64,000 bases of DNA from a virus (IMGVR_UViG_3300032227_001172:64001-128000); one strand, 5' to 3'. Positions 19,701 through 36,596 are shown, counted from the first letter of the stretch. Numbers and translations: made by a program. Notes: a model not told the origin generated them from the sequence alone.

Positions 19701-21332
19701 ATCGTCTCCATTAAGGTTATTATAGGATCCTAAATTATTATTATCTAAACCTGATACTCTTATTTTATTACCAAAGACTAATGATCCACTAGCATTAGAA
19801 ACCCAGTTATTAATACCAAAAACTGTGGTATTAGCCATAGCAGTACCAGCAGTTTTTTGATCAGTACCGACAATGGTGCCATCTGTACTTATAACAATTC
19901 CGCTTGTATTGTTTAATACGCCTACTATAAGATTATTATTGCTGTTGGTTGGTACTCTATTTCTTGGGCCGATAACAATATTATTAGCTATAGTACCAGA
20001 TAGATTATTATCATTGCCTACAATTAAAGATTCTGTAATTTGCGATACGGTGTTATTTTGTCCAACAAGAACTAAACTATCTGGTGCAGCATTAAGGGTT
20101 GAATTATTAATACCAATTAGTATACTGTCGTTAAGTCCGCTTGTGGTTTTAACCCCTAAGCCAAGAATCATAGAATTTTTACTACCGGTTAAACTAATAG
20201 CATTACCAATATAAATACCAGTATTAATACTCTGTGGGTTATTATCTCTACCAATACTAATAACGCTGTTGCCACTCACATCAGAATTATTACCATATAC
20301 AATATTTTGTGAACCAGAAAGATTAATATTGGAACCTATGGCTATATCATTAGCTCCACTAATATTGATATTACTACCAATATATATATTATCACTTCCA
20401 ATAACAGATGCTCCAACACCGAAACCGATAACAGATTCGCCAGAAATATTAGCATCTGATGTTAAGCCAACAAAATTATTACCTTTAACTTTAGTATCTT
20501 GACCTATAATGATATTACGACTACCTGTTGTAGATATATCTGTACCAAATCCTATGTTGTATAAACCAGATATTTTAGAATCTAGTGCGAAAATAATATT
20601 ACGCATCCCAGACACTGTGGTACTATTAGCGAAAACTAAAATTTTGTCACCACTAGCTACAATATCATTACCAACAATAATTCCGGTATTATGAATAGTA
20701 TTATTACTATTGCCTAATATAATATAAGATAAACCGCTACTAGTATTATTGAATCCTAAAATATCATAAAAATGTCCGGTTGGACTATTTAAACCTCCCA
20801 ATACAGTATTAACTAAGCTAGACCTAAAAACTTCCTTATTAACACCAGTATGATCAACAGTAAAAATTAATTCGCCGCTAGTTTGTTGAGATGCTGGATT
20901 TAAAATTCTGCTTTTAATTTGTCCATAAGTAATTGTGCTATAATTAGTATCTCTTCCAGCTAAGTCTATAGTAACAGGATAACTACCAGTTTCTGGTGGA
21001 GTTTGTGAATTATGAACAAATAGAATTCTAACACCAGTAGCGCAATTACTTTCATTTTCAACTTTTAGTCCATCATATGCACAATCTGTAACAACATGCA
21101 GAGTAGCATCTGGATTGGTAACATTAATGCCTAGTCTGCCTTTGGAAGCATCAAAGTACATAACATCCCCAGCAACCATTCCAGATACAGCAAAGTCTAT
21201 ATTGGAACGATTTTGATTAAATATTGTAGGAGATCCAGAAGTATCTGATAGAATAATATCATATATATTTCCTGATCCTATATTTAGTGTTCCAGATACA
21301 ATATTATTGTTGTTATCAAATGTTGCTGACAT
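16749..21332 (-). CDS. Tail fibre with YadA-head-like beta-roll repeats (1527 aa)
   Basis: SD GGAGA. Dozens of ~14-aa N-x-I-I-G-x-N-N repeats (about aa 190-630). Fibre motifs RLGINVTNPDATLHV and VGINTTNPRSTLDVSG; GYTLHADANGNATW, KYLKITDAAGNV, GLILAWDGSKW shaft motifs. Confidence 0.8.
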   Translation of the reverse strand: MSATFDNNNNIVSGTLNIGSGNIYDIILSDTSGSPTIFNQNRSNIDFAVSGMVAGDVMYFDASKGRLGINVTNPDATLHVVTDCAYDGLKVENESNCATGVRILFVHNSQTPPETGSYPVTIDLAGRDTNYSTITYGQIKSRILNPASQQTSGELIFTVDHTGVNKEVFRSSLVNTVLGGLNSPTGHFYDILGFNNTSSGLSYIILGNSNNTIHNTGIIVGNDIVASGDKILVFANSTTVSGMRNIIFALDSKISGLYNIGFGTDISTTGSRNIIIGQDTKVKGNNFVGLTSDANISGESVIGFGVGASVIGSDNIYIGSNINISGANDIAIGSNINLSGSQNIVYGNNSDVSGNSVISIGRDNNPQSINTGIYIGNAISLTGSKNSMILGLGVKTTSGLNDSILIGINNSTLNAAPDSLVLVGQNNTVSQITESLIVGNDNNLSGTIANNIVIGPRNRVPTNSNNNLIVGVLNNTSGIVISTDGTIVGTDQKTAGTAMANTTVFGINNWVSNASGSLVFGNKIRVSGLDNNNLGSYNNLNGDDIQNFGNSNFVVGDSNTAIGAKNDILGNSSISFNTSTTKRNQIFGNNNIVIGNNEVVVSGLSIGFDNEIYGVNNLIYGKNNTVGLVRYPCMVSGTNVVIIGDITAFNGGDRVLVGLYSPASQDTPVFIRSILDGTDPLTEEPLGVIKENLGSNFTTTLIVDSTISSTNTIEYYVKNTFDDIIHGQNPCSECFANLFAGYSSGYVLAYQNGNDEDDLVNNPRYGNTNIILGDNNKHTHSSGLVIGYRNAISGVNHLVIGNNISGYFNNAVQIGTNNRNKLVFNNDAIIFNTGLYQTNVYFNSAAPGNGNDSRVLYLDLSNNEVGINTTNPRSTLDVSGVLTTRNLRVGLGTVAGYTLHADANGNATWDLPVNLSGQNSGLLFMVNQDVGSGVRELIFNTGTKELSYLRADRDLQNDFNLIAGSVEEKALIINQSGLYLNNVASDWGYQFVLKGSGIQDEVNGDNSIYLIKTEVKDNAIRIHNVTGVSGIFKQMKIVDGVNLPVNLTGTVLRVNNIGNLVSQSFDRHSLLFNSSNYASTGNNALRYYADSQAVTIGTTGEPPLQANVSLVQGASNTYNNIILGSSNGVNTVFNNAGIGGNRFIVVSSGQAGTKKGLQYDANTGSFGINVDTVDNNWKVSSTSDTKYWYEAGKLVVDGKLRISSLQLSAGGKDLAGDNSVNKYLKITDAAGNVGLDTIDLSYQFSGIHPLRVTTDSQNEIVTVRLDTRNANQVTLGSTDNGLILAWDGSKWVQARGVRLVQPADGGSTDATAGLEFGNALSLNSCYNNHVFGGGGFASPGNANFDRMRGSSQLNQFYLRGRTLADNPSELLSNWHKDTSTTAAINNTISLQYTTEDNSGAATDHNRSLVWNYTINYSAIFNNNTANGFGAVAGEVNGAVLSYRNSDGSRTTTKLGSESHPQKRYTGVDYSSTDPITVRIENAGDNANVQRLAIIANGRPSYNGLWSVTVDINQVFMPSGVNFGNSDT

Positions 21333-21359: not shown

Positions 21360-24300
21360 TTAGATATCTATCGTACCGCCACCAAAATTAGGAGGTTCAA
21401 CACCTTCTAAATTATTAGCAACCCAATCCTTCATTGATGCATCAATATTCGCCATAATTACGCCTTGAATAGCTGGTTGTAGTGCTGCAAATAGCTGTGC
21501 TCCTGTAATATCTACTGTTATTCTAGCTGGTTGCATTGCCAAATTAATTTGTTGTGGTATATTAATACGCTGTAATTCTTTGATCAAATTACCAAATTGC
21601 AAGACAAAACCAGCTACTCCATTATTTACACCATTGGCATTATTACCTCCAGCTGCTGCAGGACCCATTGCTGGTTGCTGAAAGCCTTGTAATATAGTAC
21701 CAAATTGTACCAATGTTTGATTAACACCAGTAAGTAAAGTGCCAAATATTGTAAGTTGTTGATTAATATTGCCAAATGATTCAGGATTAAATGCTGCTTG
21801 GGATGCTTGGTTTACCCTATTGGCTAATACCATTTGTGCTTGTGGTTGCATTACAACAGGTCTTGGTGTCAGCATTTGCTGTTGTTGAGCTTGTTGAGCT
21901 TGTTGAGCTCGTTGAACTTCATCGATACGTCTTTCTCTGGGATTTCTATGTTGACCTCTCCTGACGAAAATACCATCGCTTGCATATACTATTCCTCCAT
22001 TTTGATAATAACCATCATTTATAGCGCGTAACACAGGAAGATGTCGTTGTGTAGCTTGACGATTAACAACAAATTCGCCGGGAGTTAGCATTGCGGGTAC
22101 TGTGTCGGTACCACGAGGCTGATAGTTTACTAATGTTCCTGTTGATGCATATATAGCTCCACCATGGCTTCTATAGTTTAACTTTGGTGGAGATGGAGGA
22201 AGTGGCGGTGGAGTCATTTTTACGCCTTCTCCACCCTTAGTTTCCATAAATCTTACTAAACTTTTAGATAGTTCTCTGGTTTGTTCATCTGTACCAGGGA
22301 AATCCTGGAAATTAGACGTAAGAAATTCTTGGCTCCCAGAATTTTCTGCAATATCTAAGTAGTTCTGAGAAGTAAAACCCCTATCCTTGCTAAGTCTTGT
22401 TATAGCATCCAAAACTCGATCATGAGCCGTTAAAGTTTTTGGACCCCTTACTCCAACCTCTGCCATGATATCAGGTTGTATAAGAGACGCATCTTCCCTT
22501 CCAAATGCTAGTCCTGCGTTTCCATAACTACCACCAGATCGACCACGAGTATAATTATCAGCCTCAGATCTTAATGTCGAATTGATCCTATCTTTATCGA
22601 TCACTACACCCATATTAATTAATGCATCATCTACTAGAGACATAAAACCATCTTCTCCCAACTCTGTTCTCATCTGTTCTATAGATCTCTTTTTATAATA
22701 GTCTGCGGTTCCTTCTAATATATCATTAACTCCATATCCCATATGGTTTCTTGGAGTTGCCATTTCATGATATTGAGAAGTTGTTCTTTTGAGGACTGAA
22801 TCGGCTACTTGATCTCTGTTGTTCTCCATCCAAACTTTTAATAGTTTTCCAGTAGGATCCTTCATTGTCTGATAATGATGAGCAGCCTCATGAGCCACTG
22901 TGCCAATCATCTGTTCTGGGGTAATCTTAGGAGATATTCTACTCAAACCTCCCTGATAATCGCCGAGAGCTCCAGGAACAGGTTCTGTAAATCTTGTTGT
23001 TAATGAATCAAATGTTTTAGGATCTGCTCCAGAATAATGAATACTTTCAGCCAAGTTGTCTCTGGCTTTATATACTAACTGATCAACACTTATTGGACCG
23101 TCAACATAGCGACCTCCAAATCCTTTCATTCCTACAAACGGAGTAATCGCTTCTGATATGGGTCTATTTAATGCTTTTTCAGCATATCTTATCTGTTTTG
23201 GTGTTAATCCTCCGGGACCAACCATTGAATCTCCAACCCTTGTTGGTGTGGGTATAGAAGGCAAAGCTAACGATAGTAACCCTCCTGTTGCAACATCTCC
23301 TGCTGTTGATCCTGCCATTGCTGATACGGGATTTTCATCCATTAGTTGATTAGCTATAGCGTTAGGCTTTGGAGCTCCCGTATTTAATGCTGTTTCTTGC
23401 ACCAACGATCCTACTCCAGCTCCAGTAATACCTCCAATCAAGCCTCCCGCAATAATTCCAGGAGGTCCTAATGGAGCAAGGGCAGCTGCCGCTATTATAG
23501 CACCAGAAGTAGCCCCCATTTGAGGAACAAAAGACTTAGCAGCTCCGGCAGCAAAAGCTGCTCTGCTACGCATGGCCGCATATTCTGGATGATTAAAAGA
23601 TGTTTCTGGTAAAAGTTTAAATTCATTTGCTGAAATTTCTCTGCCATTTTGATCCAAATAGGTTTTAGATCCACCACTCTGTGATATGTGCGGAATACCC
23701 ATTCGCTTTAAACTTCTAGAATACTCACTATCTCTTATAACAGAATTTTTATCGTGAACTCCTTCTTTAAAAGATCCTGATTGAACAGTTGGTGTTGGTA
23801 GTTTTGGTCTTGATGGATCAAATCCATCTTGAGCATAAACCACACCGCCCTTACTCAATACAATAGCTGCTCTAGCATAAAACTGATTATATAAACTATC
23901 TACATATTCTTGAGATAATAAACTTTTATTTTTTAAAGATTCTATAGTATCATAATAATGTTGTATTCCTGTTTGTATATCTAGGACACGCTCATTCTCA
24001 GGAACTGTTTTAACTCCACCTATAAATTCTGACCAGTTCGTTGGTGGTTTTACTTTTTTATTATCAATTAATGGTTTAAGTGTGCTACGCATAGCACCAA
24101 ACCTAACATCCATTTCTCTAGCTTTATAAAAATAATCAATCTCGTCTTCTGTTAAAGATCCGTCTTTTTGTAATGCATTATATAAAGGCTGCAGATATTG
24201 ATTTGTACTAATTGATGTTCTGTTATCTTTTGTTACAGCAGGGCTTGTGGTGTGTCTCTGTAAGTAATGTCTAAGTTCATGAGCTACTATAGCCCACCAT

Positions 24301-27300
24301 TCTTTATATTCTTGAGGATCCAATCTATTATTTTGGTTACCAACTCTGTTATCTTGATCAAAGGTTTGCCAAGGGGCGACAAAAACATTTTGTGGTCCAT
24401 TATCTTTTCCTATATTTTCTCCAAGTAAGCCTCCGCCAATAAGTTTGACATTAACAGGAACTTTTTTATCTAAAAGTTTATTTATAGGTGTTTTTTGACC
24501 ACCTAGTGATTGTAAGGCAGGAAATACTGATTCTGATTGCGGACCATTACCCATTTCTCTATTAGCCTGAATATTATCAGTATCCATATTTTGTCCAGAA
24601 CGCTCCATCGCATCTCTCAGCCTTGTTATTGTTCTATTGCCGATTTCCATTCCTTCTGTTGATATGTTTTGTTGTATTCTTTGTGCTTGTTGTGTTTGTT
24701 TTGTCGATCTTGACGCTGATTCGACTTGAACTCCATTTTGAGCATAAACTACACCGCCATTATTATAATAACCATCATTAATAGCATGGAGTAATGGTAA
24801 ATGTTTTTGTGTAGCCGCCCTATTAATTACAAATTCTCCTGGTGTTAACATGGCGGGAACAGTGTCTGTGCCTTTTGGTTGGTAATTAACCAGTGTGCCA
24901 TCGGCAGCATAAACCATACCCCCACGATACATTCCCATCGGTTGTCCAGGTTGTGGACCTTGGGGAGGTGCTGGTATTGGTTGTCCGGGCAATTGTGGTA
25001 TTACGCCACCTATTTGAGCAGCTATAGCTTGAATAGCATTATTCATCACAACACCAAAATCATCTAATACGTTCAAAATCTTGTCTGACGCTATAGCTTG
25101 AGCTTCACAGCATTGTTTTAGCATAGCAATAGTATAATCTAGTTTTTCTTGACTAGTAATATTATTTTGAGGAACTGCCTGAGTATTAGTTTGAATATTA
25201 TCTTTATTAATATATCCTAGTTTAGTACTTTCTTTAGCGTTCATCAAAACTTCATCGATACGTTTATCTGGAGCTGGTTCTATTTGTACTCCATCAACAT
25301 ATTTAGTTGGATCAGTAGTCATACTTGCGCCTCCGACACCACCATCCGCTAGATACTCTATTTTACCACCCCTGCTGCGATTGATACTTTGTAATAATGG
25401 TAAATGTTTTTGTGTTGCTGCTCTATTAACAACAAACTCTCCTGGCGTTAACATTGCTGGCACAGTATCTGTTCCTTGTGGCTGATATGGAACCAACATA
25501 CCAGTACTAGCATATATAATTCCGCCCCTACTCTTTGTTGCTACTTTATTAGATACTCTAATAGCTTCATTTTGTGTTTGTTGGGCAGGATATAAAAAGC
25601 CAGCTACATTTCCACCTCCCAGAGCATTCAGTCTTGCGATATTAAAGTCATTATTAGCTCGTGGATCAATAAGTCCTTGTTTTGCTGCTCTAGTATATAA
25701 ATTAGCTTGTGCCATTTTTTTCTGGCCAGGATTCAGCTTATCAAATCTTGATACTAATTTTTCGAATACTCCAATTTGTTTGGATGATCTAACGAAGGTG
25801 CTTTCAAACTGTTTGGTAATTTCTTTACGTTCTGCTGGAGAGGCCGAACTAATAATCTGTTGTAGTCTAGGATCATTCTCAACATTTTTGGATAAATTAT
25901 TTTGTTGTACTCTTAATGCTGCTACCACTTGAGAAGCTTTTGGACTTAGTGGCGCATTTTGAAGCATAGAGCTATATATTGATACTAATTCTTGTGAATT
26001 AAAAGGATTATATACGGCATCTATCATGTCTGGTGGTATACCAAGAGTTCCTAGAGCTTCTGGAGTTCTAGCACCGAATGGGAAATCTTTTTGTAGTTTT
26101 TTCTGTAGATTTTTTCTCCATGTTAAAAATACGCCAGGATTAGAAAATTTATCTGGAATAGGCATATTCATATACTTAGCAGTAGCACGTATCTGATCTC
26201 CTTGCTGTTTAGCTAATTTATCATTAGCTTTCTTTTCTTCTCTTTGCTGTGCTTTAGCTTGTACTAGTTGTCCAGATTTATATTGATCCCAAAGTTTTTG
26301 ACGACCCTCGGTATCTAGTTGATCATATTTTTTATCTTTATATTCTTGATTTATATTTTGATTGACTGTATTTAATTGACCATATAATGTATCTAGTCTA
26401 GCATTTTTTTCTTTTTCCCATTTGAGTTCATCACCAGCAAATGAATTATTTGGATCATATCTAGAAGCTTTTTCTTCTTGGATTTGCCTATATAATTCTT
26501 CACGGTCTGTGACAGACTTTTGGAATTCTGGACTAAACGCATTTGGTGGTAAACGCTTTATCCATGGAATAACACGGTTAGTGCTTTCGCTGGTTTCACG
26601 ATAAGACCCAAACTTTTGTTGTAAAAGTCTTTGTTCTGGAGTTAATGGCTTATCTAAACCAAAACCATCTAAAGACATTCTATTAGGATCAGTTGCATAA
26701 ATAGCATCGTCAATTCTACCTCTTTCTGCATCTATATTAGCTTGTCTTTGCATCTTAGCGTTTTGAGCAGCCTCAGCTTTCTCAAGATCTTCATTTGTGG
26801 CCCATTCCCTTAAACCAACAGCTTTTTTACGTTCAGTAAGTTTTGTTCTTTCACTCCATTGTTTATCAAAAAGAGCATCTGCATCTGCTTGTTCTCTAGC
26901 TTGTTGGTCAGCTTTTTGCACGGCGGCATCTTTATCCTCTGCTGCCATCTGACTTCTAGCCTCACTAGTTCGTCTTTGATAAGATGCTTCTTTTTGAATT
27001 TCTTCATTCAAAGTAGCATCATCAAATGTAGAACTGTTGAAGAATGATCCGGTTCTAACGAATAACTGTTCTTCATTTCTTGTGGCGCTAGCTCTTTTTT
27101 GATCTTGGTAAGCTTGAGCTTTACGAGCTTCTAAATCTGCAACTAGTCTATCTCCTGCTTGAGTACGAGGTTTTGCTTTTAAATCCTCAATTTTATTCTG
27201 CAATTTAGCTTGTTGTTCAATAAATAAAATCTCAGCAACAGATCGTCCTTCATAAGTTTCTCTTCCTCCGGCTCTTCTGGCAACTTCGGCTTCTCTGCTA

Positions 27301-30300
27301 TCTTCTAGATTAGATCTACCAGCATTTTCCATTCTGCGAGTAGTTTCTCTGCTAGTAGATAAGTTTTGTCTATCATTATAAAGACCAGTAGTTTCTCTTC
27401 CTACTGAACCTACAATTTGTGCACCTCCAGCGATCGAAGCCCCGATTAAAGCTCCAGGAGGACCAAAAACTCGTCCAGCTATTGCTCCTTCGCCTATGGC
27501 AAAACCGAACTCTGTTAAATTACCAGCAGCAAGGTCTGTATAGCCACCCCGCTCAACACCTAAAGCACCACCAATCATACTCCTTTCTGCTCCAACATCT
27601 CCTCCACCACTAACACTTCCAGTTAAAGCTCCTGTAATACCTCCTCCTTCATAAGCAACATACGCTCTTTGTGCTAATGTTAATATTGGACCTAGTACAC
27701 TAAAAGTCTTTCCTAAAAATTCTCTAGTAGCAGGACTAGTGGCGAGTTTAAATAAATCTAACTTTAATAAATTTGGTATATTCATTCCTTTAAGTTTTGG
27801 AATTTTTTCACCGATATAACTTAACAAATTTGAAAGACTTTGAAAATATTTCTCAGCAATAAAACCTTTAGCTGCATTTCCACCGGTTTGTACCGCAGAC
27901 CCACCCTTTTTACCGGCATTAAATAATACCTGAGTTTGAGCATCTATATCTGCTAATAAAGCCGTCGGATCAAGACCACCAGCAGCATAAACCACACCGC
28001 CACGACTAAATGTTTTACTATTTCCAGCACTACCATTAATAGCACTTAATAATCCTAAATTATTTTTAGTAGCTTGAGCATTAACTACAAATTCTCCAGG
28101 ACTTAACATAGCAGGGATAGTATCAGTACCTCGTGGCTGGTAATTTACATATGTTCCATCACTAGCATATACGATACCTCCACCAGATAATCTTTGAGTA
28201 TTAGTAGCTTGACCCGGAGTTCCTACTCCAAAACCAGCACCACGTAATTGTTCGGTGTCAAATTTTACTCTAACTTCACTTAATGCTTTTATAAATGTTT
28301 GATTAGCACTATCTAATATGTCTTTTTGTTTAGCTAATATTCCTTCATTTAGTGCTTGTGTGCTTGTAGCAAGTTCTGCTTGTTGTGCTTTTAACATTCC
28401 TTGTAAAGCTTGGATTTCTGGACTTTGTTCTGGAGGCTGTCTTAGTAACTCAATCATTTTTTGGAACATAGGATTATTCTGAAGTCCCATTCCTTGAGCT
28501 TTAGCAAAATTCTCTAATAAATCAGCTCTCATATTATTAATTTGTGGTCCCTCTAGACCACTCATTTGAGATAACTGATTAAACAACCCTAAAGCGCTCT
28601 TAGTTTGTCCAGCAAAAGCCTGTTGAGCAGCGGCGTATGCTTCTTGTTGTGTTGATCCATTTTGTAGCGCCTGAAAATAAGCTTGTTGAGCAGCTTGAGA
28701 CTGATTGATGGTTGTAATTTGACCATTCAATGTATTATTAAGTAAATTAAATGTGGAATTTAATTCTCCTAATTCTTGCGGGGTGCTTCCTACTAGTTGT
28801 TCGGCAAATGATCCTGCTGCTTGTTGGCGACCACTTAATTCTTGTTGTATTCTACCAATTTCGCCGATAATATCATTAATATTTCCTTCGATAGCTCCGG
28901 GTAAACTTTCTAATCCTTGTTCTGTTGCTTTTAGGGCGCTCTCAGTTTCTGCTAATTTTTTAGTCAGCGCTGTGAATCTAGCGTCTGCTTTAGGAATAGT
29001 AGAATCAAAAGTATTAGCAGTATTTTGTAAAGCTGATCTGATAGCATTTACTTCTTTTTGTAATGTATCTTTACGAGAAGCTAAATCTGTAGCATTTAAT
29101 TGTTCGGGAGCTACGCCAGCTCTAGTAGCGGCGACATTTCTTCTAGATTGAAGTCTTTCTCCTATGCCGACTCTTTGACCCAAAGCTTCTTTTAATGCTA
29201 TATTAGATTGTGTTAGGGTGTTTTGATAATTTGCTTGATTTTCTCTTAGATTTTGTTGTAGTTTACCATATTCATTAGCAGCATTGGCCGCAAAATTCAT
29301 AGCCTCTTGTACAAGCTTTAAACTATTCTGTAAAGCTTCAAAAGCTTGCTTGCTTGCTTGTAATTGATTGCTTAAGCCAGATTCTTCCAATAGTTTTTGA
29401 ATATCTATTTCCTCGCCACGTTTTAAAGATTCTTCAATTTTATCTTTAAATTCATTTCTCAATCTATCCCCAAGATCATTTCTGCCAAATACAGCATCTA
29501 TTTTTTGTGTTAATTGATTTATAATATTTGTTGCTACTACGGCCTGATTAGCTCCTGTTTGTTGTGCTCTAGCGGCTCCACCAGCCACGATATCTTCTGC
29601 GTCTAAACTGAATCTAGCTAATTGTTCAATAAATCCTCGATCTCTACCAGCAAATTGAGATGCTTGACCGATAGCAGTATTTTGTTGTTCTCTACCAAAT
29701 GCTCTTGGATTTTGTAAAACATTTAAAGCATCAAGATTCGCAGTAAATCCAGTTGCTCCAGATACTATTTTTTGCAAATCATCACTGGCCTGTTTTAAAC
29801 TTGCTGATGACGCATTGATGGCCTGATTAAGATTATCAAAAGTTCTTGTCATACTAGCAGATACTACATTTATTTTTTGCGTAAGCTTTTGTGCAGCTTT
29901 AGCTCTAGCAGAATCGGCAAATTCAGCATTAGCTAATGTTCTGGCTTGATCAACATATTTTCGTTTAACTCCTTGAATAGCTCTTTCCTTTAGTTGCTCT
30001 GCCATATTAGATTTTTGTATGGTAGTTACTTCTGCTTGGTATTCAGGATTAGCTTCTGCGATAGCCGTATATAAATCCGATAAAGCAACTCCTTGTTGTT
30101 GTAAAATATTAGTTACTTGATCGTAACTTTTACCCGCAGCAATCATACTACTAATTAAAGCTTGAGCCTCTTGCGCTGCTGCTTGTTGCTCCGCTGTTCT
30201 TGCTCCAGAAATTTCCGCTGATGATCTTTTATCTCCTCCTAAGTAACCAAAAGTAGCTGTGCTCAATGCTCTACTAACCATTCCTGGTTGTTCAGCCTTA

Positions 30301-33300
30301 AGATTGGAAGCCATCCGTTTTTCTTCTAAGGCTTGAATTTTTTGAAAATTAGTAACTAATGTTCCAGCATCTTCGGATCGTCCAGTTTTAACAAATCTTT
30401 CTCTCACTTGGGCAGATTGTTCTACTGCTTTATCTAGTTGTATGGTGGCTAGTTCAGATTCTTTTTGGGCTACAGCGGATGCGAATCCATCCACAGCAGC
30501 AACAGCGCCGACTAATGCTCCCGCAATAGCCCCAATGCCACCAAACTGAGCACCTATAGATGTGTATGTTGAAAAAGCAGTGGCTCCTCCAGCAATACCA
30601 GCACCCGTAGTTCCTCCGATACTGTCTCCAATTTGTTGTGCCAGCATTGGACCAGTGAAAGCTAAAGCCGTACCTAAATTAGATAAATTTAAACCTCCTG
30701 TTCTTCCGCCTCCACCAGCCATGTCTCCGTCATCCTGTGCTTGAGCAGAATTATTCTGTGCTGTAGTTAGTTGTTGTGTAGATGTATTAAGTTGCTGTTG
30801 TGATTGAGCGGTTTGCTTTACCTTTTGTATCAGTCCACCCCAAGCCTGTGACACTCTTTGTTCCGCAGCTGCTCTTGCATCTGCAACAGAAACACTATTG
30901 TTAGTAGCTCGAATTTGTCTTGTTAATGCATTAACTTGCTGCCTTTGCTGTTGATACACGAGTTCTGCGGCTCTCTGGTCTCCTGTCTCTGCTGCTTGTT
31001 TAGCACCAAACAACACTTGAGATTCAGGCAAAACCCTACCAGATGCTTCAGCATATGCATCATCAAAAGACATAGTAGGATTAGCTTTTGCTATTTGGCT
31101 TACCACTTTTGCCATCATGTTTTCAACTGCTTGTTCTAATGCTTTAGCTGCGTCTTCTCCAACTCTAGATGCAGTAGACGAGAATTCAAAAACATCTCCA
31201 CCATTATTAAATTTCTGTACTCCAACTCTTCCTCCTCTATTGAAACCAAGAGCTTTTGTTGCCTTGGCACGTAGGATAAAACTGCCTTCTGGCAAGCTGG
31301 TGCGAATACTATCGCTCGTACCGCTACCTGGACCTTTAAATACGCTAATACCACCCTTACTAAACCGTCCCATACCATTACGATCAGCCTGATTCATACG
31401 TTTTAAGTTACCATAGCCAATGCTCTTAGCTGTTTTGGGTGGCACATAGGCTTCGCCATTACTAACTAGAGCAGGTACAGATCCTCCGTCAGCAAACTGC
31501 TGAACATCAGCCCATAGGTTATGTCTACCCATCAAGTCTACATATTTAGCTTTATCTACTCTGAATCTAGAACGAGGAGAAAGGATAAATTCATTTTCTT
31601 CACTAGGCTGTTTCATGAAGAATGTTTCCATCTGGCCTGTTCTTGGATTGATATCTTTTTTAGTTACATTAATTTTACGATCTTTAAATTGTTCAGCGAC
31701 ATCTACTCCTTGACCATTTTTCTTAGTCCTAACAGTAAGCATAGCTGCCCAATTATCTTCAGATCTTGGGGCGTTATCTAAAAAAGATTTAGCAACTGCA
31801 TAATTTTTACTCGTAGAAACAAAACCTGGAAGACTAAAGGCTTTACCAACAATTTTAGCTACTTCTTGAGCATAGTAGGTTTGTCTATTATTATATTTTG
31901 TATCTTTTGGAATATCTGGACTTTTATTTAAACCAGTATCCATAGCAAATTTATCAAAGGCATTACGAGATAATGAACTATATAGTTCCTCTGGTGCTGG
32001 TGTTCGTAGCTGTCGTAAATTCTTCACGTCCGAAGCTAACCCTCTTCTCTCATTCTTACTTAATGATTTACTATTAGATAGACCGAGATTAATTGGAGCA
32101 GCGTCTGTGAAATATTTTTCTAGTGTATCTTTTGGTTGTGATGATCCTCCAGCTGCAAACTTTACTCTACCACCGTTATTAAATTTATTAGGATTTTCAG
32201 TAAAATATCTCTCGAACTCAGTTCTTGCTTTTTCAAAAGAACTACCATCTAGTGTTCTTTTAACTTCTGTTTCTATATTAGGTGGAAGATGAAATAAAGA
32301 AGATGCGTTTCCGAGTCCATCAGGAAAATCTATGGCCCTATTACTTTCCAAAGTATCAATATTTAATCGATATCCTAATTTTTGAGCTAATGCCTGCTCT
32401 AATAAGGCCCCCTCAATATTGCCTTCTCCAGTTTTAGTATACATTTTTGTATCGTCAAAAGATTCTGGTTCTTTATATCGATATGTATCAATTCCTCTTT
32501 TTTTTGCTACTTTAATATTGTCTTCATTATCATCAATAAATCTTTCAAAAGCTGCTAAATTATCTGCTTTTGCTTTAGCAATATTAGTTCCTAATCCTTG
32601 ACTAACCCCGGTAACATCTGAAGTTTGATATGGTAGTCCGAATCTATTTAATGTTGTAGCAACTAGATCAGCTGTGCTCTGTGGTCTGGCTGTTAATACT
32701 CTAGTAAATCTTCTAACGATTCCAGGATTTTTTTTCTCGACCTCGGCTAATCTTTGTGCAAGTCTTGTCGGTTTGGCTTGAGCTAAGCTATCCGCTACTT
32801 TATCTCTTATAGAATAACTAGGAAGATCCTCTGCTCCGGTCTTATCAACCATTTTTGTACCAAATGCTAATGTTTCATCAAAATCTATAGCTAATGGTCT
32901 AAAAGGTCCAACTATTTGTTTGTCTGTCTGACCAAGTGGCCCCAAAGCTTCAGTAGCAGTAGTATCTTTAGCAAAATCTAAACTGGTTTGCCTTTGTTTT
33001 TCTCTTAGCCTTTGAACGTCTGATAAATATTCTTGACCAAACCCACGAATCATAGCAACATATTTTTGACCATCAAGTGGGCTATCTGGTCCAGTACTTA
33101 GTGTCCATTCCTTATCTTTTGCATAGCCTATTGGCTGTAATCCTGCTATAGCAACTTTCCTTATGCCTCTTATGCGATCTTCTTCATTTTTTGCTGCTGC
33201 TTTAGCTTTATTAAGAATACCAGCAACAACCAATGAATCAAGTTTACCAGAAATAATACTGTCTTTTCTAATTTTTCTTTGTAAATTTCCTGGAATACTA

Positions 33301-36300
33301 ATACCACGGCTTTTTATACCAGCTTCACCACCAAGATCCGACAATGTTTTTACCATAGCATCAGCTATAGCTTGTTCGATAGACTGATCTTGTTTTTTAT
33401 TTCTTAAAGCAATCTGACCAATCTCTCCATATAGTCCGACACTTGTTGTATCAGACTCTACCAAGTCTCCGTCCATGAATTTTTGAATAATTCCTCCTGT
33501 GGCTTTATTTTTAGGACGAATTGGTTTGCCTAACCCTTCTATTATTTTTTGATCATATACAACTGCCATTTGTTCATCTAAGTCTTTACCAGCTATTTTT
33601 TTGGCGCCACGTATATTCCTTTTAACCATTTCTTCTCTTATTGCTTGAGATGCTCTTTCTAGTGCTTTGTATTGAGGATCAACCTCTCCCTTCTTGCGAA
33701 GTTCAGGTTCCATTTTTTCTGCTAAATGTGCAGTCATAAATTCTACAACACTGCCGAAAGGCGCTGTCTTTAAATTTATTCCACTAGTCGGTATCTTTTT
33801 GGTTTTAAAAATATCTTGAATAGCCGGTAGAACTTTTTTAGATATTGGTGCAGATGCTTCTGGAAAACCAGATATTCCATCTTTAATTTTTACAGGATAA
33901 ATACCGCCCTTACCTCCAGTTCGCCGCATACCTCTTCTTGCATAGTCAGCAGCAAGACCTTCTTTATTTAATCCAAAATAAGCTCCAGCGCCTAGTAATC
34001 CACCGGGACTTTTAGTTACATCTAATTCCTCTAAATCATGACCGGTACCATGATAAAGTGTTTGATCAGTTACTTTACCACCCCTAGGGAATCTTTGAAC
34101 TTGTCCTCCCATTAATGTGTCTGCTATCTGATTTGGCACAAAATCTCTAGATTGTGTCCCACCAGTACCTGTCGCAGAACGAGAACTAATCTCTACAGGC
34201 CTAGGAGACCATAGTTTTTCTCTAGTCAGTATACTTTTAGCTATGTCCGCAAATCTATAAATTTGTTCATCTCTAGAAATATATCCTGGTGGCTTGGGAG
34301 GATCTGCTTTTCGCCCTACCTCTTCTTTAAAAGCTTTTCTAATTTCATTTTCTACTTTAGTAGGTATATTGGCTATGCCTTGTCTTTTGACTCTACTACT
34401 AATTTTATCAGCATTGGTTCCATATAATAAAAAAGGACTATTCAATGCTTGCTGAAAATCTGGTAATGTTATATGCCCAGAACCTTTTCTGCGCATAGCA
34501 TTATTAAAAGACTGTGGTAATGCTATAGTAAAATTAGGTAAAACTTGTATATCTTCACCATTTAAAATACTTCTAATTCTTGTACCAATCACTCTTTGTC
34601 CAGATACTCGCTCGTATTCTTGTGGGGTTACTGGCCTACCATACCTTGTAGGATCTATAGCATGCGCTCTAACAGTAGGTTCTTGCGGATCATATCTTAT
34701 AGCTGTAGCATCTTTTACTGCCCGTTGTTTTTCTTCGTCTGTACGATTATCTTGAACTATAGGATACAATCCATCTTCTGGCCTTGAGTTTCTTATGCGT
34801 GCTCTTCTACTAACGCCAGCTGCTGTATTGCTGCTTCCCGCCATAAATTTTTGAATAGACCCACCACCATTATTCATTCTAACAAGATTACCAGCACCAT
34901 ACTTTTGTACAGCGCTCTTTCTCATGACAAACTCACCAGGAGTTAGCATAGCAGGAACACTGTCAGTATTTCCGGCACCGGGTACACTGCCACCTTTTGC
35001 AAAATGACGAACATAGCCACCACTACTTAATCTTTGATTTTGTGCTCCTGTTCTAATACCACCAGCAAAACCTCTACCAAACTGTGTTAATGCTTGAAAA
35101 CCTTTAATAGCAAAAATAGCAGTTAGTGCCGGTAAGGCTCCTTTAACAGCATCGGCAACCGATATGAACGCGCTTGCTAAATCTAATCCTAATCTGACTA
35201 AATCTTGAAAACCTTGAGATTGTCCAATACTACGAACTAAAGCACTAAATTCTTCACGAACTTTAGCCATCTGATTAGCTAAACTAAGTTGTGCTGTAGC
35301 AGCATCTTTAGCTAATGATCCTTGTCCCTGTTGAGCAACATTTAATGCTTGTTGTGCTGTTGTAAATTGTTGAATAAGCGGAATAACTTTACCGATCTGT
35401 CTAAAACCACCAAGCTCTTCAACGATTCTGCTAAATCTGATGTCTCTAGGATCTAATGAGGATAAACCTGCTGCTAGTCTTCTAACAGCCTCATATGGTC
35501 CTACGAATTTACCTTCAAGATCTGTTAATGCTACTCCATAAGATTTAAGAGCATTAATAGTGTCTTCTCTTTGAATACGAGTAAAAATAGTTCTTAAGCC
35601 AGTAGCAATAGTTTCGGCGCTTTCACGAGTAGTAGCTCTAACGCTTGTAAATACAGCAATAAATTCATTTAGTGCGTCTGTTCCTTGGCTTACTCCCTTA
35701 CTAGCAGCAGCAAACACACCACCAGTTCTTGAAATGGCCGTAACAATATCACTAGCTTCAACAGCAAACTTAGCAGCAACAGCATTGATACTGCCCAAAG
35801 CTCCTTCTAATTGACTTGCACTAATACCAAACTGTCTCATTAATGCAATACTGCCTTCTACAGTACTATTTAGATCATCAAACGATGGAGCTAATGCCGA
35901 TCTAGCCAAAGCCTGTAAGGCTATCGATGTATCTCTAGCACTCAAACCGGCCTGCGCCAAGGTTTGTGCCACATTAATCAAATCCTGTGACGCAACACCG
36001 AGACCCGTGGATAGTTTGGTGATATTACTAACCAAAAATCCAAGACTTTGTACTGGAGTATCTGTAACCTGAGAAACTTTTACTAGCTGTTGATTAAATT
36101 GAATAAAGTCTTGAGTAGCATTAGTAATAGCATTAGATGCTTTATATATTATACCAGTAACAGTAGCAAATGCGGCAAAACGTCTAACAGCCAAGGCTGA
36201 CTGTCTACCAAACTCAGTAAATTCTGACGTAGCACCACGAGTAGCCGTTGCAGCTCTGTTATTGGCTTGTGTAGCTTGGTTAGCTCCTTGAGCAACCTGA

Positions 36301-36596
36301 TTCATGGTTTGCGGAATATTTTGTAAATTATTCGATAATAATCTTGCAGCGTTACCTAGTTGAGTAATAGATCTCGATGTAGTATCTGCTAAGGTTCTTG
36401 TTTGTTGCAGTGTTCTATTGAAGTCTTGAAAAGATCTACTAATAGTATTAATTTGTCTATTTGTCTGTTGATTGATCTGAACAGTAACATTAGTGTTTAT
36501 GCTACCTAGCTGGCGACGTAAATCACTAACGACCTGTCTAATATTAGACGGTCCTCGTAGATTAATTTCAGCAGTAAGATTAAATCCTCTAGCCAT
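21360..36596 (-). CDS. Tape measure protein (TP901-type core) carrying multiple enzymatic cargo domains, 5078 aa
   Basis: SD GAGGA. N-terminal TMP core (...INVAQTLAQAGL...INAVAAKFAVEASDIVTAISRTG...RESAETIATGLRTIFTRI), long Ala/Gln/Leu coiled coils, hydrophobic Gly/Ala segments, TMP-type PAMLTPGEFV modules, canonical position after tube and chaperone genes. Confidence 0.93.
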   Translation of the reverse strand: MARGFNLTAEINLRGPSNIRQVVSDLRRQLGSINTNVTVQINQQTNRQINTISRSFQDFNRTLQQTRTLADTTSRSITQLGNAARLLSNNLQNIPQTMNQVAQGANQATQANNRAATATRGATSEFTEFGRQSALAVRRFAAFATVTGIIYKASNAITNATQDFIQFNQQLVKVSQVTDTPVQSLGFLVSNITKLSTGLGVASQDLINVAQTLAQAGLSARDTSIALQALARSALAPSFDDLNSTVEGSIALMRQFGISASQLEGALGSINAVAAKFAVEASDIVTAISRTGGVFAAASKGVSQGTDALNEFIAVFTSVRATTRESAETIATGLRTIFTRIQREDTINALKSYGVALTDLEGKFVGPYEAVRRLAAGLSSLDPRDIRFSRIVEELGGFRQIGKVIPLIQQFTTAQQALNVAQQGQGSLAKDAATAQLSLANQMAKVREEFSALVRSIGQSQGFQDLVRLGLDLASAFISVADAVKGALPALTAIFAIKGFQALTQFGRGFAGGIRTGAQNQRLSSGGYVRHFAKGGSVPGAGNTDSVPAMLTPGEFVMRKSAVQKYGAGNLVRMNNGGGSIQKFMAGSSNTAAGVSRRARIRNSRPEDGLYPIVQDNRTDEEKQRAVKDATAIRYDPQEPTVRAHAIDPTRYGRPVTPQEYERVSGQRVIGTRIRSILNGEDIQVLPNFTIALPQSFNNAMRRKGSGHITLPDFQQALNSPFLLYGTNADKISSRVKRQGIANIPTKVENEIRKAFKEEVGRKADPPKPPGYISRDEQIYRFADIAKSILTREKLWSPRPVEISSRSATGTGGTQSRDFVPNQIADTLMGGQVQRFPRGGKVTDQTLYHGTGHDLEELDVTKSPGGLLGAGAYFGLNKEGLAADYARRGMRRTGGKGGIYPVKIKDGISGFPEASAPISKKVLPAIQDIFKTKKIPTSGINLKTAPFGSVVEFMTAHLAEKMEPELRKKGEVDPQYKALERASQAIREEMVKRNIRGAKKIAGKDLDEQMAVVYDQKIIEGLGKPIRPKNKATGGIIQKFMDGDLVESDTTSVGLYGEIGQIALRNKKQDQSIEQAIADAMVKTLSDLGGEAGIKSRGISIPGNLQRKIRKDSIISGKLDSLVVAGILNKAKAAAKNEEDRIRGIRKVAIAGLQPIGYAKDKEWTLSTGPDSPLDGQKYVAMIRGFGQEYLSDVQRLREKQRQTSLDFAKDTTATEALGPLGQTDKQIVGPFRPLAIDFDETLAFGTKMVDKTGAEDLPSYSIRDKVADSLAQAKPTRLAQRLAEVEKKNPGIVRRFTRVLTARPQSTADLVATTLNRFGLPYQTSDVTGVSQGLGTNIAKAKADNLAAFERFIDDNEDNIKVAKKRGIDTYRYKEPESFDDTKMYTKTGEGNIEGALLEQALAQKLGYRLNIDTLESNRAIDFPDGLGNASSLFHLPPNIETEVKRTLDGSSFEKARTEFERYFTENPNKFNNGGRVKFAAGGSSQPKDTLEKYFTDAAPINLGLSNSKSLSKNERRGLASDVKNLRQLRTPAPEELYSSLSRNAFDKFAMDTGLNKSPDIPKDTKYNNRQTYYAQEVAKIVGKAFSLPGFVSTSKNYAVAKSFLDNAPRSEDNWAAMLTVRTKKNGQGVDVAEQFKDRKINVTKKDINPRTGQMETFFMKQPSEENEFILSPRSRFRVDKAKYVDLMGRHNLWADVQQFADGGSVPALVSNGEAYVPPKTAKSIGYGNLKRMNQADRNGMGRFSKGGISVFKGPGSGTSDSIRTSLPEGSFILRAKATKALGFNRGGRVGVQKFNNGGDVFEFSSTASRVGEDAAKALEQAVENMMAKVVSQIAKANPTMSFDDAYAEASGRVLPESQVLFGAKQAAETGDQRAAELVYQQQRQQVNALTRQIRATNNSVSVADARAAAEQRVSQAWGGLIQKVKQTAQSQQQLNTSTQQLTTAQNNSAQAQDDGDMAGGGGRTGGLNLSNLGTALAFTGPMLAQQIGDSIGGTTGAGIAGGATAFSTYTSIGAQFGGIGAIAGALVGAVAAVDGFASAVAQKESELATIQLDKAVEQSAQVRERFVKTGRSEDAGTLVTNFQKIQALEEKRMASNLKAEQPGMVSRALSTATFGYLGGDKRSSAEISGARTAEQQAAAQEAQALISSMIAAGKSYDQVTNILQQQGVALSDLYTAIAEANPEYQAEVTTIQKSNMAEQLKERAIQGVKRKYVDQARTLANAEFADSARAKAAQKLTQKINVVSASMTRTFDNLNQAINASSASLKQASDDLQKIVSGATGFTANLDALNVLQNPRAFGREQQNTAIGQASQFAGRDRGFIEQLARFSLDAEDIVAGGAARAQQTGANQAVVATNIINQLTQKIDAVFGRNDLGDRLRNEFKDKIEESLKRGEEIDIQKLLEESGLSNQLQASKQAFEALQNSLKLVQEAMNFAANAANEYGKLQQNLRENQANYQNTLTQSNIALKEALGQRVGIGERLQSRRNVAATRAGVAPEQLNATDLASRKDTLQKEVNAIRSALQNTANTFDSTIPKADARFTALTKKLAETESALKATEQGLESLPGAIEGNINDIIGEIGRIQQELSGRQQAAGSFAEQLVGSTPQELGELNSTFNLLNNTLNGQITTINQSQAAQQAYFQALQNGSTQQEAYAAAQQAFAGQTKSALGLFNQLSQMSGLEGPQINNMRADLLENFAKAQGMGLQNNPMFQKMIELLRQPPEQSPEIQALQGMLKAQQAELATSTQALNEGILAKQKDILDSANQTFIKALSEVRVKFDTEQLRGAGFGVGTPGQATNTQRLSGGGIVYASDGTYVNYQPRGTDTIPAMLSPGEFVVNAQATKNNLGLLSAINGSAGNSKTFSRGGVVYAAGGLDPTALLADIDAQTQVLFNAGKKGGSAVQTGGNAAKGFIAEKYFQSLSNLLSYIGEKIPKLKGMNIPNLLKLDLFKLATSPATREFLGKTFSVLGPILTLAQRAYVAYEGGGITGALTGSVSGGGDVGAERSMIGGALGVERGGYTDLAAGNLTEFGFAIGEGAIAGRVFGPPGALIGASIAGGAQIVGSVGRETTGLYNDRQNLSTSRETTRRMENAGRSNLEDSREAEVARRAGGRETYEGRSVAEILFIEQQAKLQNKIEDLKAKPRTQAGDRLVADLEARKAQAYQDQKRASATRNEEQLFVRTGSFFNSSTFDDATLNEEIQKEASYQRRTSEARSQMAAEDKDAAVQKADQQAREQADADALFDKQWSERTKLTERKKAVGLREWATNEDLEKAEAAQNAKMQRQANIDAERGRIDDAIYATDPNRMSLDGFGLDKPLTPEQRLLQQKFGSYRETSESTNRVIPWIKRLPPNAFSPEFQKSVTDREELYRQIQEEKASRYDPNNSFAGDELKWEKEKNARLDTLYGQLNTVNQNINQEYKDKKYDQLDTEGRQKLWDQYKSGQLVQAKAQQREEKKANDKLAKQQGDQIRATAKYMNMPIPDKFSNPGVFLTWRKNLQKKLQKDFPFGARTPEALGTLGIPPDMIDAVYNPFNSQELVSIYSSMLQNAPLSPKASQVVAALRVQQNNLSKNVENDPRLQQIISSASPAERKEITKQFESTFVRSSKQIGVFEKLVSRFDKLNPGQKKMAQANLYTRAAKQGLIDPRANNDFNIARLNALGGGNVAGFLYPAQQTQNEAIRVSNKVATKSRGGIIYASTGMLVPYQPQGTDTVPAMLTPGEFVVNRAATQKHLPLLQSINRSRGGKIEYLADGGVGGASMTTDPTKYVDGVQIEPAPDKRIDEVLMNAKESTKLGYINKDNIQTNTQAVPQNNITSQEKLDYTIAMLKQCCEAQAIASDKILNVLDDFGVVMNNAIQAIAAQIGGVIPQLPGQPIPAPPQGPQPGQPMGMYRGGMVYAADGTLVNYQPKGTDTVPAMLTPGEFVINRAATQKHLPLLHAINDGYYNNGGVVYAQNGVQVESASRSTKQTQQAQRIQQNISTEGMEIGNRTITRLRDAMERSGQNMDTDNIQANREMGNGPQSESVFPALQSLGGQKTPINKLLDKKVPVNVKLIGGGLLGENIGKDNGPQNVFVAPWQTFDQDNRVGNQNNRLDPQEYKEWWAIVAHELRHYLQRHTTSPAVTKDNRTSISTNQYLQPLYNALQKDGSLTEDEIDYFYKAREMDVRFGAMRSTLKPLIDNKKVKPPTNWSEFIGGVKTVPENERVLDIQTGIQHYYDTIESLKNKSLLSQEYVDSLYNQFYARAAIVLSKGGVVYAQDGFDPSRPKLPTPTVQSGSFKEGVHDKNSVIRDSEYSRSLKRMGIPHISQSGGSKTYLDQNGREISANEFKLLPETSFNHPEYAAMRSRAAFAAGAAKSFVPQMGATSGAIIAAAALAPLGPPGIIAGGLIGGITGAGVGSLVQETALNTGAPKPNAIANQLMDENPVSAMAGSTAGDVATGGLLSLALPSIPTPTRVGDSMVGPGGLTPKQIRYAEKALNRPISEAITPFVGMKGFGGRYVDGPISVDQLVYKARDNLAESIHYSGADPKTFDSLTTRFTEPVPGALGDYQGGLSRISPKITPEQMIGTVAHEAAHHYQTMKDPTGKLLKVWMENNRDQVADSVLKRTTSQYHEMATPRNHMGYGVNDILEGTADYYKKRSIEQMRTELGEDGFMSLVDDALINMGVVIDKDRINSTLRSEADNYTRGRSGGSYGNAGLAFGREDASLIQPDIMAEVGVRGPKTLTAHDRVLDAITRLSKDRGFTSQNYLDIAENSGSQEFLTSNFQDFPGTDEQTRELSKSLVRFMETKGGEGVKMTPPPLPPSPPKLNYRSHGGAIYASTGTLVNYQPRGTDTVPAMLTPGEFVVNRQATQRHLPVLRAINDGYYQNGGIVYASDGIFVRRGQHRNPRERRIDEVQRAQQAQQAQQQQMLTPRPVVMQPQAQMVLANRVNQASQAAFNPESFGNINQQLTIFGTLLTGVNQTLVQFGTILQGFQQPAMGPAAAGGNNANGVNNGVAGFVLQFGNLIKELQRINIPQQINLAMQPARITVDITGAQLFAALQPAIQGVIMANIDASMKDWVANNLEGVEPPNFGGGTIDI
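21972..22176 (-). repeat. TMP linker module copy 6 (YRSHGG-AI-YASTG...GTDTVPAMLTPGEFVVN...YYQNGG-IV-YASDG)
   Basis: Direct translation; near-identical peptide to copies 3-5. Confidence 0.95.
24732..24934 (-). repeat. TMP linker module copy 5 (MYRGG-MV-YAADG...GTDTVPAMLTPGEFVIN...YYNNGG-VV-YAQNG)
   Basis: Direct translation. Confidence 0.95.
25340..25537 (-). repeat. TMP linker module copy 4 (KSRGG-II-YASTG...GTDTVPAMLTPGEFVVN...RSRGG-KIE-YLADGG)
   Basis: Direct translation; shares an exact 21-nt stretch (taatggtaaatgtttttgtgt) with copy 5. Confidence 0.95.
27975..28193 (-). repeat. TMP linker module copy 3 (RLSGGG-IV-YASDG...GTDTIPAMLSPGEFVVN...FSRGG-VV-YAAGG)
   Basis: Direct translation. 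Confidence 0.95.
31199..31500 (-). repeat. TMP linker module copy 2, divergent double/permuted form (VPALVSNGEAYV...GPGSGTSDSIRTSLPEGSFIL)
   Basis: Two degenerate copies of the module bounded by FADGG, FSKGG, FNRGG and FNNGG. Confidence 0.8.
34861..35033 (-). repeat. TMP linker module copy 1 (RLSSGG-YVRH-FAKGG...GNTDSVPAMLTPGEFVM...RMNNGG)
   Basis: Direct translation. Confidence 0.95.

Follow-up and report, generated by a model that had tools for sequence, protein, structure and literature searches.

The Tape Measure Gene

The stretch of DNA analysed here (IMGVR_UViG_3300032227_001172:64001-128000, a window of 64,000 nt) comes from an uncultured aquatic phage, whose genome (230,691 bp, GC content of approx. 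32%) has direct terminal repeats and is estimated to be 100% complete, and the window carries the gene of a giant tape measure protein (TMP), which is the subject of this analysis. The gene is a single open frame of 15,237 nt (21360..36596, minus strand) encoding 5,078 amino acids (aa); all positions are counted along the window, all parts of the TMP lie on the minus strand, and residues are those of the 5,078-aa protein. PF10145 (PhageMin_Tail) was matched at residues 192-383 with E = 6e-22 (78.9 bits vs. a cut-off of 33.2), and matches to several tape-measure PHROGs (E values down to 1e-21) lie within the first ~600 residues; judged by these profile matches, the protein is a TP901-type TMP. 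A first-pass annotation of the window had already described a single TMP open reading frame (ORF) of this length, and the open frame, PF10145 and the TMP PHROGs bear it out. The whole TMP, searched with phmmer against PDB sequences, gave no match at E <= 1, and an NCBIfam search of ten TMP pieces returned noise only.

Conserved Scaffold, Modules and Cassette Exchange

The family search, which was restricted to proteins of 2,792-8,887 aa, returned at least 331 homologous giant TMPs of 2.8-7.9 k aa, from several sources and on contigs of up to 238 kb. The best 119 of the 331 homologues were mapped onto the query, and the counts of relatives given below refer to these. The main observation is that a scaffold found almost universally is broken up by cassettes, which have been gained, lost, moved into another order or replaced among the relatives. 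The scaffold consists of the N-terminal core, a glycine zipper (Gly-zipper), a helical stretch of ~700 aa, seven copies of a module and the C-terminal end.

The module is ~70 aa long, with the consensus GG-x-I-Y-A-x-x-G, P-x-G-T-D-T-V-P-A-M-L-T-P-G-E-F-V-V-N, I-N and GG-x-V-x-Y. A hidden Markov model (HMM) built from 94 diverse copies finds it seven times in the TMP, as five strong copies and a degenerate double module at residues 1702-1808 (E = 8e-7 and 6e-11), and zero times in every other ORF of the genome, so that the recurring modules of the first-pass annotation, including its "double module", were recovered. The short GG motif is the flanking strand of this module, and as a regular expression it occurs 16 times in the TMP vs. 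0.94 expected, with a maximum of 5 in 2000 shuffles. The copies of the GG motif differ in codons (no word longer than 18 nt is shared, and most shared words have <=12 nt), therefore the motif is maintained as protein and not as a DNA repeat. The motif is also written in two dialects (21969-35024), GG-x-[IV]-[QR]-[KR]-F in the N-terminal third and GG-h-h-Y-A-x-x-G in the C-terminal half. A module homotrimer predicted from three copies with a 94-row alignment scored 0.01, which counts neither for nor against such an assembly. Heptad periodicity reaches 3-30 times the background across the core and the helical stretch together; a coiled coil of ~750 aa, as previously proposed for the helical stretch, receives modest support from the 3-7-fold periodicity there.

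Homology breakpoints (n = 1,162 in the 119 relatives) fall within 15 aa of a GG motif in 53% of cases vs. 15% of all positions, a 3.4-fold enrichment, which agrees with the earlier claim that cargo boundaries coincide with GG motifs. This enrichment is partly a by-product of modules being conserved islands, an effect that does not account for the breakpoint peaks at the lone GG motifs 1034, 1475 and 1704. The clearest single case is the closest relative (P0002), which is 95-98% identical over the scaffold, and in which query residues 842-1031 (the cassette ART1, see below) are exchanged for 366 unrelated aa; the identity ends within GG motif 830 and restarts within GG motif 1034. The same relative has additional cassettes after GG motif 4250, and where the query has this lone motif, P0002 has a complete module at the same place. 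A search of viral and of metagenome contigs did not recover the cassette swapped in. This replacement (P0002:842-1207) has no Pfam family and contains an internal GG motif of its own, and is thus made of two small cassettes.

Cassettes also move along the protein. ART1 is located near residue 5,400, towards the C-terminus, in two relatives (P0030 and P0062), the HAD cassette at 2241, 2622 or 3337 in others, ART2 directly behind the first module in several, and in P0036 the order of ART2 and HAD is inverted. Their side of the helical stretch is constant: HAD (72/72) and ART2 (33/33) always precede it, and the zincin cassettes (9/9) always follow it. The order of parts along the TMP had been given correctly in the first-pass annotation, and what it had proposed to look for among orthologs, i.e., a constant scaffold with differing cargos at the same junctions, is what the 119 relatives display.

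When the non-scaffold parts of the 119 proteins were cut at GG motifs and clustered, 406 pieces gave 157 clusters, and Pfam recognised only ADPrib_exo_Tox (3 clusters), EF-hand, SHD1 and YidB among them. The cassette repertoire is therefore large and mostly of unrecognised families. Among the family TMPs P0014, P0037, P0048 and P0075, some have EF-hand calcium-binding domains, and others SHD1 or PF28597.

Enzyme Folds among the Cassettes

The AF2 model of residues 835-1710, built on a 100-row alignment, reached a mean pLDDT of 77.5. Within it, ART2 is modelled with pLDDT mostly of 80-94, and its top 50 Foldseek matches (probability 1.0) are all ADP-ribosyltransferase (ART) toxins of the C3/VIP2/iota type. 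Structural alignment gave Z = 15.0 to CPILE-a (root-mean-square deviation, rmsd, 2.9; 167 aligned residues), 13.5 to VIP2 and 13.4 to C3bot2, with a range of 13-15 that includes Vis, and PF03496 was matched with 29.1 bits (cut-off 23.4). Of the 24 family copies, at least 75% retain the motifs "ISR" (Arg), "STS" and "E-x-E". By modelled fold and catalytic residues, ART2 is thus confirmed as a C3/VIP2-type (R-S-E) ADP-ribosyltransferase, and the VIP2-like label that it had first been given stands.

The HAD label is likewise well founded. The modelled domain has the 3'-phosphatase of T4 Pnkp and related end-healing enzymes as its best structural matches (5uj0_B, Z = 11.0, rmsd 3.2, 126 aligned; 1ltq, Z = 10.4; 4xrp, Z = 9.8), motifs I-IV (DxDxT; S/T; K; DD) are each at least 80% conserved in ~78 copies, and a weak match to PHROG 415 (polynucleotide kinase) was found. 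On fold and catalytic residues, residues 1229-1379 are confirmed as a predicted T4-Pnkp-like HAD phosphatase. At least two of the cargos thus have, as modelled, genuine enzyme folds whose catalytic residues are intact. The PD-(D/E)xK nuclease proposed for the segment behind the HAD domain (residues 1380-1474) was rejected, as only one strand accompanies the helices in the confident model, and the putative ExK has an acidic residue that is not conserved; "DFP" and "KRT" are conserved in this segment. Homologues of residues 1229-1705 among proteins of 262-835 aa were only TMP fragments on contigs of 1-3.5 kb, so that neither HAD nor ART2 turned up as a gene of its own.

The remaining enzyme names fared differently. 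ART1, first labelled as a HYE-type ART, matches ART-PolyVal with 23.4 bits, below the cut-off of 31.2 and at profile positions 8-57 of 140 only, and two of six ART1 copies match this profile at E <= 0.01. "YHG" and "GAGxY" are invariant, and other invariant Glu residues exist. The N-terminal half (residues 835-915) is modelled with pLDDT < 50, and the ART1 profile found no relative among PDB sequences; the label is thus a weak one, at the level of motifs. The two HExxH units, Zn1 and Zn2, are putative zincins at the level of motifs. HExxH occurs twice in the TMP vs. 0.009 expected by chance, and it is invariant in 4/4 Zn1 and 7/7 Zn2 copies. Fold and profile support did not follow: the AF2 model of residues 3886-4880 (13-row alignment) was unusable with a mean pLDDT of 41, the Zn1 and Zn2 profiles found no meaningful match among PDB sequences, and Pfam DUF6782 and M13 were matched at E 0.03-0.15 only. 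An exhaustive representative search with residues 3950-4815 returned P0014 and two weak matches only. For residues 600-830 (cassette A), the NCBIfam, Pfam and atlas searches gave no match, so the label "RAH nuclease-like", which no search supports, was rejected, and a search for homologues of residues 590-1040 in the size range of 248-790 aa gave none. Two of the seven enzyme names originally assigned are confirmed, three stand on motifs and two are unsupported.

Proposed Delivery at Infection

It is already known that TMPs are trimers in the tail tube with the C-terminus in the tip, and that they are expelled at infection and form a trans-envelope conduit (PMC12617516, PMC13033339, 10.1101/2022.09.20.507954), while glycine zippers of TMPs and of the type VI secretion effector Tde1 mediate membrane translocation (PMC10240207). 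To hypothesize, we consider it fairly probable that the protein is an exchangeable-cassette TMP, in which a ruler and channel scaffold carries cytoplasmic enzymes on its N-terminal side and zincins on its C-terminal side, all delivered at infection. The tail would then probably deliver ready-made enzymes together with the DNA. The TMP would be expelled from the tail with its C-terminus first, so that the C-terminal zincin and Gly-zipper units exit first, with the envelope as their place of action, the conduit is made by the hydrophobic, helical middle, and the N-terminal enzymes that use NAD and phosphoesters exit last, just before the DNA, as was proposed for the polymerase of P23-45, with their cytoplasmic action preceding phage gene expression. 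This assignment of first and last is read from the positions of HAD and ART2, always before the helical stretch, and of the zincins, always after it. The order along the TMP would in this way mirror the order and the compartment of delivery. The slot N-terminal to the helical stretch would hold enzymes with cytoplasmic substrates (ART2, HAD and the weaker ART-PolyVal-like unit), and the C-terminal slot Gly-zipper and HExxH units, as in T5 pb2 and P23-45 gp96. The GG modules would be standard joints, kept as protein, at which cassettes recombine in and out.

Several points weigh against this proposal. The ejection of the cassettes is argued by analogy, and on this basis delivery is plausible. 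In ART1 the position of the expected Glu reads Q in most copies, so this cassette may lack the catalytic Glu. No 5'-kinase or RNA ligase that could partner HAD in a Pnkp-like repair role turned up in the genome, where AAA_33, RNA_lig_T4_1 and RNA_ligase gave no match (the PF09511 search was uninformative, as control genomes were also unmatched). More than 140 of 148 insert clusters match no Pfam family, and "enzyme cargo" therefore fits a minority of them. The adjoining genes have no PHROG or Pfam family, nor any recognisable chaperone, tail tube or distal tail family, which makes the gene context only loosely tail-like. Finally, the lumen of a tail tube is estimated at ~4 nm, and three folded domains of 20-50 kDa do not fit in it side by side. 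The cassettes would therefore have to be stored unfolded or staggered, and refold afterwards. Such refolding was proposed for pb2C by the authors of the T5 study (10.1101/2022.09.20.507954).

The alternatives differ greatly in weight. It is next to impossible that the giant ORF is an artefact of mis-assembly or of a read-through fusion of several genes: no point in favour was found, the frame is open over its whole 15,237 nt, the homologues come from independent sources, and the genome record is complete with terminal repeats, by which this explanation is already contradicted. It seems quite improbable, too, that the inserts are envelope-breaching, membrane-insertion, assembly or length-spacer elements of an inflated ordinary TMP with no host-takeover effectors. 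Metallopeptidase and transmembrane domains have indeed been called characteristic of many TMPs (PMC10770324), T5 pb2C is muralytic (10.1101/2022.09.20.507954), and the Zn2 cassette pairs a Gly-zipper with HExxH in a T5-like manner; in addition, most inserts have no recognisable enzyme family and several blocks are helix-rich. However, a C3-type ART needs NAD+, and the substrates of a Pnkp-like phosphatase are phosphorylated nucleic acids or small molecules, so that the cytoplasm is indicated for ART2 and HAD; across dozens of diverged copies, purifying selection has clearly acted on the catalytic residues of both, and both always occupy the N-terminal slot, on the same side as the virion RNA polymerase of P23-45 (PMC10770324).

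A further possibility concerns the joints, namely that the TMP is a punctuated polyprotein in which a protease cuts every GG junction or module, at tail maturation or after ejection, and frees the enzymes. We regard this as rather unlikely. The module profile, searched against PDB sequences, matched Douge gp16 twice (E = 1e-12), lambda gpH at residues 749-784 (E = 0.0055) and the 8rk3 TMP, and the lambda module adjoins the region in which gpH is cleaved. In gpH, the hydrophobic Gly-rich segment (691-712), "FATGG" (aromatic-A-T-G-G, ~733-737), the GEFV core and G-G-Y-V follow the same layout as the first module of the query. This protein is cut in a glycine-rich region near its C-terminus, giving gpH* (~residues 1-710) and gpHC of ~14 kDa, with neither the exact site nor the protease known (PMC12617516); the mass of gpHC would place the cut near residue 725, adjoining the GG strand, if the approximate masses are taken at face value. 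The module itself is unresolved in the lambda and Douge structures, where only gpH 818-849 and gp16 1658-1699 were modelled (PMC10721106, PMC13033339). T5 pb2 is also cut, just upstream of its enzyme domain (10.1101/2022.09.20.507954), and zincin self-processing was proposed for polyvalent proteins (PMC5512222), where the present TMP has two HExxH units. On the other side, the lambda site is known only to within ~20 residues, T5 pb2 is absent among the listed module matches, no Peptidase_S78 prohead protease was matched in the genome, and cutting all junctions before tail assembly completes would break up the ruler. The listed module matches in cultured phages all fall under annotated TMP genes, usually as one or two copies, so by these matches the module is a generic TMP element, and for most ordinary TMPs, with their one or two modules, no cut at that place is known. 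By analogy, junction processing in the present TMP is plausible. The broader idea that the GG/GEFV module is a general processing and docking unit of TMPs, that it determines the cleavage of lambda gpH, and that it has been multiplied here into a magazine of enzymes, which are cut loose at the standard joints and reach the host ahead of phage gene expression, we hold to be unlikely.

To return to the exchangeable-cassette TMP delivered at infection, the first-pass annotation had called the protein a magazine of swappable enzymes. The swaps at junctions, the two enzyme folds and the experimental precedents of P23-45 gp96 and T5 pb2C agree with this, and the two unsupported enzyme names do not; host takeover or anti-defence, which it named as the purpose, would be a candidate role.

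Comparison with Known Systems

One close precedent is gp96 of P23-45 (also P74-26, G20c and TSP4), described by Chaban et al. in 2024, a TMP of 5,002 aa whose N-terminal portion contains a functional virion RNA polymerase, and which also has transmembrane and metallopeptidase parts (PMC10770324). It is alike in giant size, in having a cytoplasm-acting enzyme N-terminally with the transmembrane and metallopeptidase parts further along, and in the proposed action of the enzyme at, or through, the pore of the TMP during DNA entry. Unlike the present protein, which has ARTs and a phosphatase where gp96 has the polymerase, it has one fixed enzyme that is conserved in relatives, and no exchangeable array or repeated junction module was described; the two are compared by description. 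Linares et al. showed that T5 pb2 is cut (into pb2* and pb2C) behind a hydrophobic stretch and ahead of a muralytic metallopeptidase; this enzyme is set free in the direction of the periplasm, where it was proposed to act (10.1101/2022.09.20.507954). A hydrophobic stretch followed by a metallopeptidase near the C-terminal end is mirrored here by the Gly-zipper and Zn2, whereas in T5 pb2 there is just one enzyme, at the C-terminal end, and one cut has been mapped, and T5 was not among the listed module matches. Lambda gpH (PMC12617516, PMC10721106) and Douge gp16 (PMC13033339) share the ~70-aa module with its aromatic-A-x-GG strand, GEFV core and GG-Y-V strand; gpH has one copy and gp16 two, with no enzyme cassettes between them, unlike the TMP studied here. 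By comparison with these proteins and with T5 pb2, residues 4880-5078 are expected to be the tail-tip end of the TMP (PMC10721106, 10.1101/2022.09.20.507954, PMC13033339).

Polyvalent proteins (Iyer et al. 2017, PMC5512222) are also very large, fast-shuffling multi-enzyme proteins with ART and zincin domains, which are thought to be injected with the DNA. They differ in not being TMPs (the word "tape" occurs 0 times in the main text of PMC5512222), and the junction element here is a TMP module. None of the polyvalent-specific Pfam families (LPD, MPTase-PolyVal, ART-PolyVal) reaches its cut-off in this TMP, and the atlas leads LPD23 and LPD1 (scores of 0.81-0.88) were not confirmed by Pfam. The carriers Tme (PMC11126660) and Sle1 (PMC13277306), which their authors call reconfigurable platforms, are TMP-like in their transmembrane and coiled-coil parts, exchangeable domain, loading in a tube and ejection; they belong to bacterial injection systems, however, with one C-terminal functional domain, and GG-module junctions were not reported for them.

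Since both enzymes fused to TMPs and TMP-like carriers of effectors had been published before, the earlier wording of a "candidate new delivery system" was overstated. TMPs with one embedded enzyme are known from T5, TM4, SPbeta-type phages and P23-45, as are TMP-like carriers of exchangeable domains in contractile injection systems and, as a general idea, injected multi-enzyme polyvalent proteins. In the literature searched, no paper joins "tape measure protein" with "ADP-ribosyltransferase domain". What appears to be new is the family-wide system, in which a TMP holds many cassettes, placed on either side of the ruler, and exchanges them at a standard joint derived from the module, with cytoplasm-type enzymes of toxin fold as the cargo.

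Should the cassettes indeed be delivered, such phages would stock the tail lumen, and not the head, with host-modifying enzymes, among them a toxin-type ADP-ribosyltransferase and a phosphatase of the type that acts on nucleic-acid ends, and would exchange them from genome to genome through a standard joint. What is so far one published case, the TMP-RNA polymerase fusion of P23-45, would broaden into a general and evolvable delivery strategy, and the 157 insert clusters in 119 proteins, almost none of them assigned by Pfam, would form a large pool of candidate effectors or anti-defence proteins. The module also offers a testable hypothesis for the old question of where and how lambda gpH is cut, and if it should prove to be a processing unit, these TMPs would be a natural modular platform for protein delivery with freely swappable cassettes.

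Feature Coordinates and Neighbouring Genes

Table 1. Parts of the TMP, GG motifs and cassettes, followed by conservation of residue ranges in the mapped relatives.
Feature	Residues	Position in window	Strand	Evidence or remark
Whole TMP gene (P0001)		21360..36596	-	Open frame, PF10145, TMP PHROGs, homologues
N-terminal TMP core	1-520	35037..36596	-	PF10145 at 192-383, hydrophobic stretch 475-500; 117/119 relatives
Module 1	525-588	34833..35024	-	Module HMM, E 5e-24
Cassette A	600-828	34113..34799	-	7/119 relatives; no family match
GG motif	830-841	34074..34109	-	Left breakpoint of P0002 cassette swap
Cassette ART1	842-1031	33504..34073	-	Weak ART-PolyVal-like match; H and Y invariant
GG motif	1034-1045	33462..33497	-	Right breakpoint of P0002 swap; HAD cassette start in many relatives
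Pre-HAD domain	1046-1228	32913..33461	-	Confidently folded alpha/beta unit, no family assigned; co-occurs with HAD in 40 relatives
HAD phosphatase domain (predicted)	1229-1379	32460..32912	-	Fold match to T4 Pnkp 3'-phosphatase, motifs I-IV
Post-HAD subdomain	1380-1474	32175..32459	-	Mostly helical in model
GG motif	1475-1484	32145..32174	-	Breakpoint peak
Cassette ART2	1485-1702	31491..32144	-	Pfam, AF2/Foldseek, R / STS / ExE residues
Degenerate double module	1702-1808	31173..31493	-	Module HMM; ~100/119 relatives
Hydrophobic Gly-zipper	~1960-2045	30462..30719	-	Hydrophobicity peak; literature (PMC10240207)
Long helical scaffold	2120-2800	28197..30239	-	115-116/119 relatives; heptad periodicity 3-7x background
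Module 2	2806-2875	27972..28181	-	Module HMM
Gly-zipper	2981-3060	27417..27656	-	Hydrophobic stretch
Charged helix-rich block	3110-3685	25542..27269	-	34/119 relatives
Module 3	3690-3754	25335..25529	-	Module HMM
Small unit between modules 3 and 4	3760-3885	24942..25319	-	70/119 relatives
Module 4	3891-3956	24729..24926	-	Module HMM
Cassette Zn1 (putative zincin)	3985-4249	23850..24644	-	HExxH and invariant Glu 55 aa downstream; 3/119 relatives
Lone GG motif	4250-4261	23814..23849	-	Zn2 cassette begins here in all copies
Gly-zipper inside Zn2 cassette	4365-4400	23397..23504	-	Hydrophobic stretch
Cassette Zn2, putative catalytic part	4450-4800	22197..23249	-	AHExxHH invariant in 7 copies
Module 5	4811-4876	21969..22166	-	Module HMM
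C-terminal region	4880-5078	21363..21959	-	Conservation across relatives
Near-universal	1-600			114-118 relatives to residue 550; 88 in 551-600
Near-universal	1700-1800			~100 relatives
Near-universal	2100-2850			100-117 relatives
Near-universal, module cores	3701-3750 and 3901-3950			117 relatives each
Near-universal, last module	4801-4900			100-110 relatives
Intermediate, HAD block	1050-1500			35-83 relatives
Intermediate, ART2	1500-1700			33-40 relatives
Intermediate	2900-3650			14-47 relatives
Rare	600-1000			4-14 relatives
Rare	4050-4700			3-8 relatives

The only two Cys in the 5,078 aa are adjacent to each other, inside the small unit between modules 3 and 4.

Fibre and baseplate-like domains are encoded a few genes from the TMP. 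As no tail-sheath family (PF04984) was matched in the genome, the tail is likely non-contractile; the "moraphage" lineage described in PMC12619734 is another group, whose tails are contractile. Directly downstream of the TMP (16749-21332), at the place expected for a distal-tail or hub protein, lies a gene for a protein of 1,527 aa, the only match of which is the beta-roll LbR_Ice_bind, just below cut-off, with no PHROG. Upstream (42269-45577), a protein of 1,102 aa matches baseplate-wedge, tail-fibre and virion-structural PHROGs with E values down to 3e-65, in an unusual gene position relative to the TMP.

The window holds further giant genes. One, in the same strand block (50835-64000, the ORF running to ~64604), encodes 4,589 aa with one He_PIG Ig-like domain as its sole Pfam match, and a third giant ORF (3-7772), of 2,631 aa in the whole genome and without a Pfam match, runs off the low end of the window. 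Six ORFs of at least 900 aa occupy 21% of the genome.

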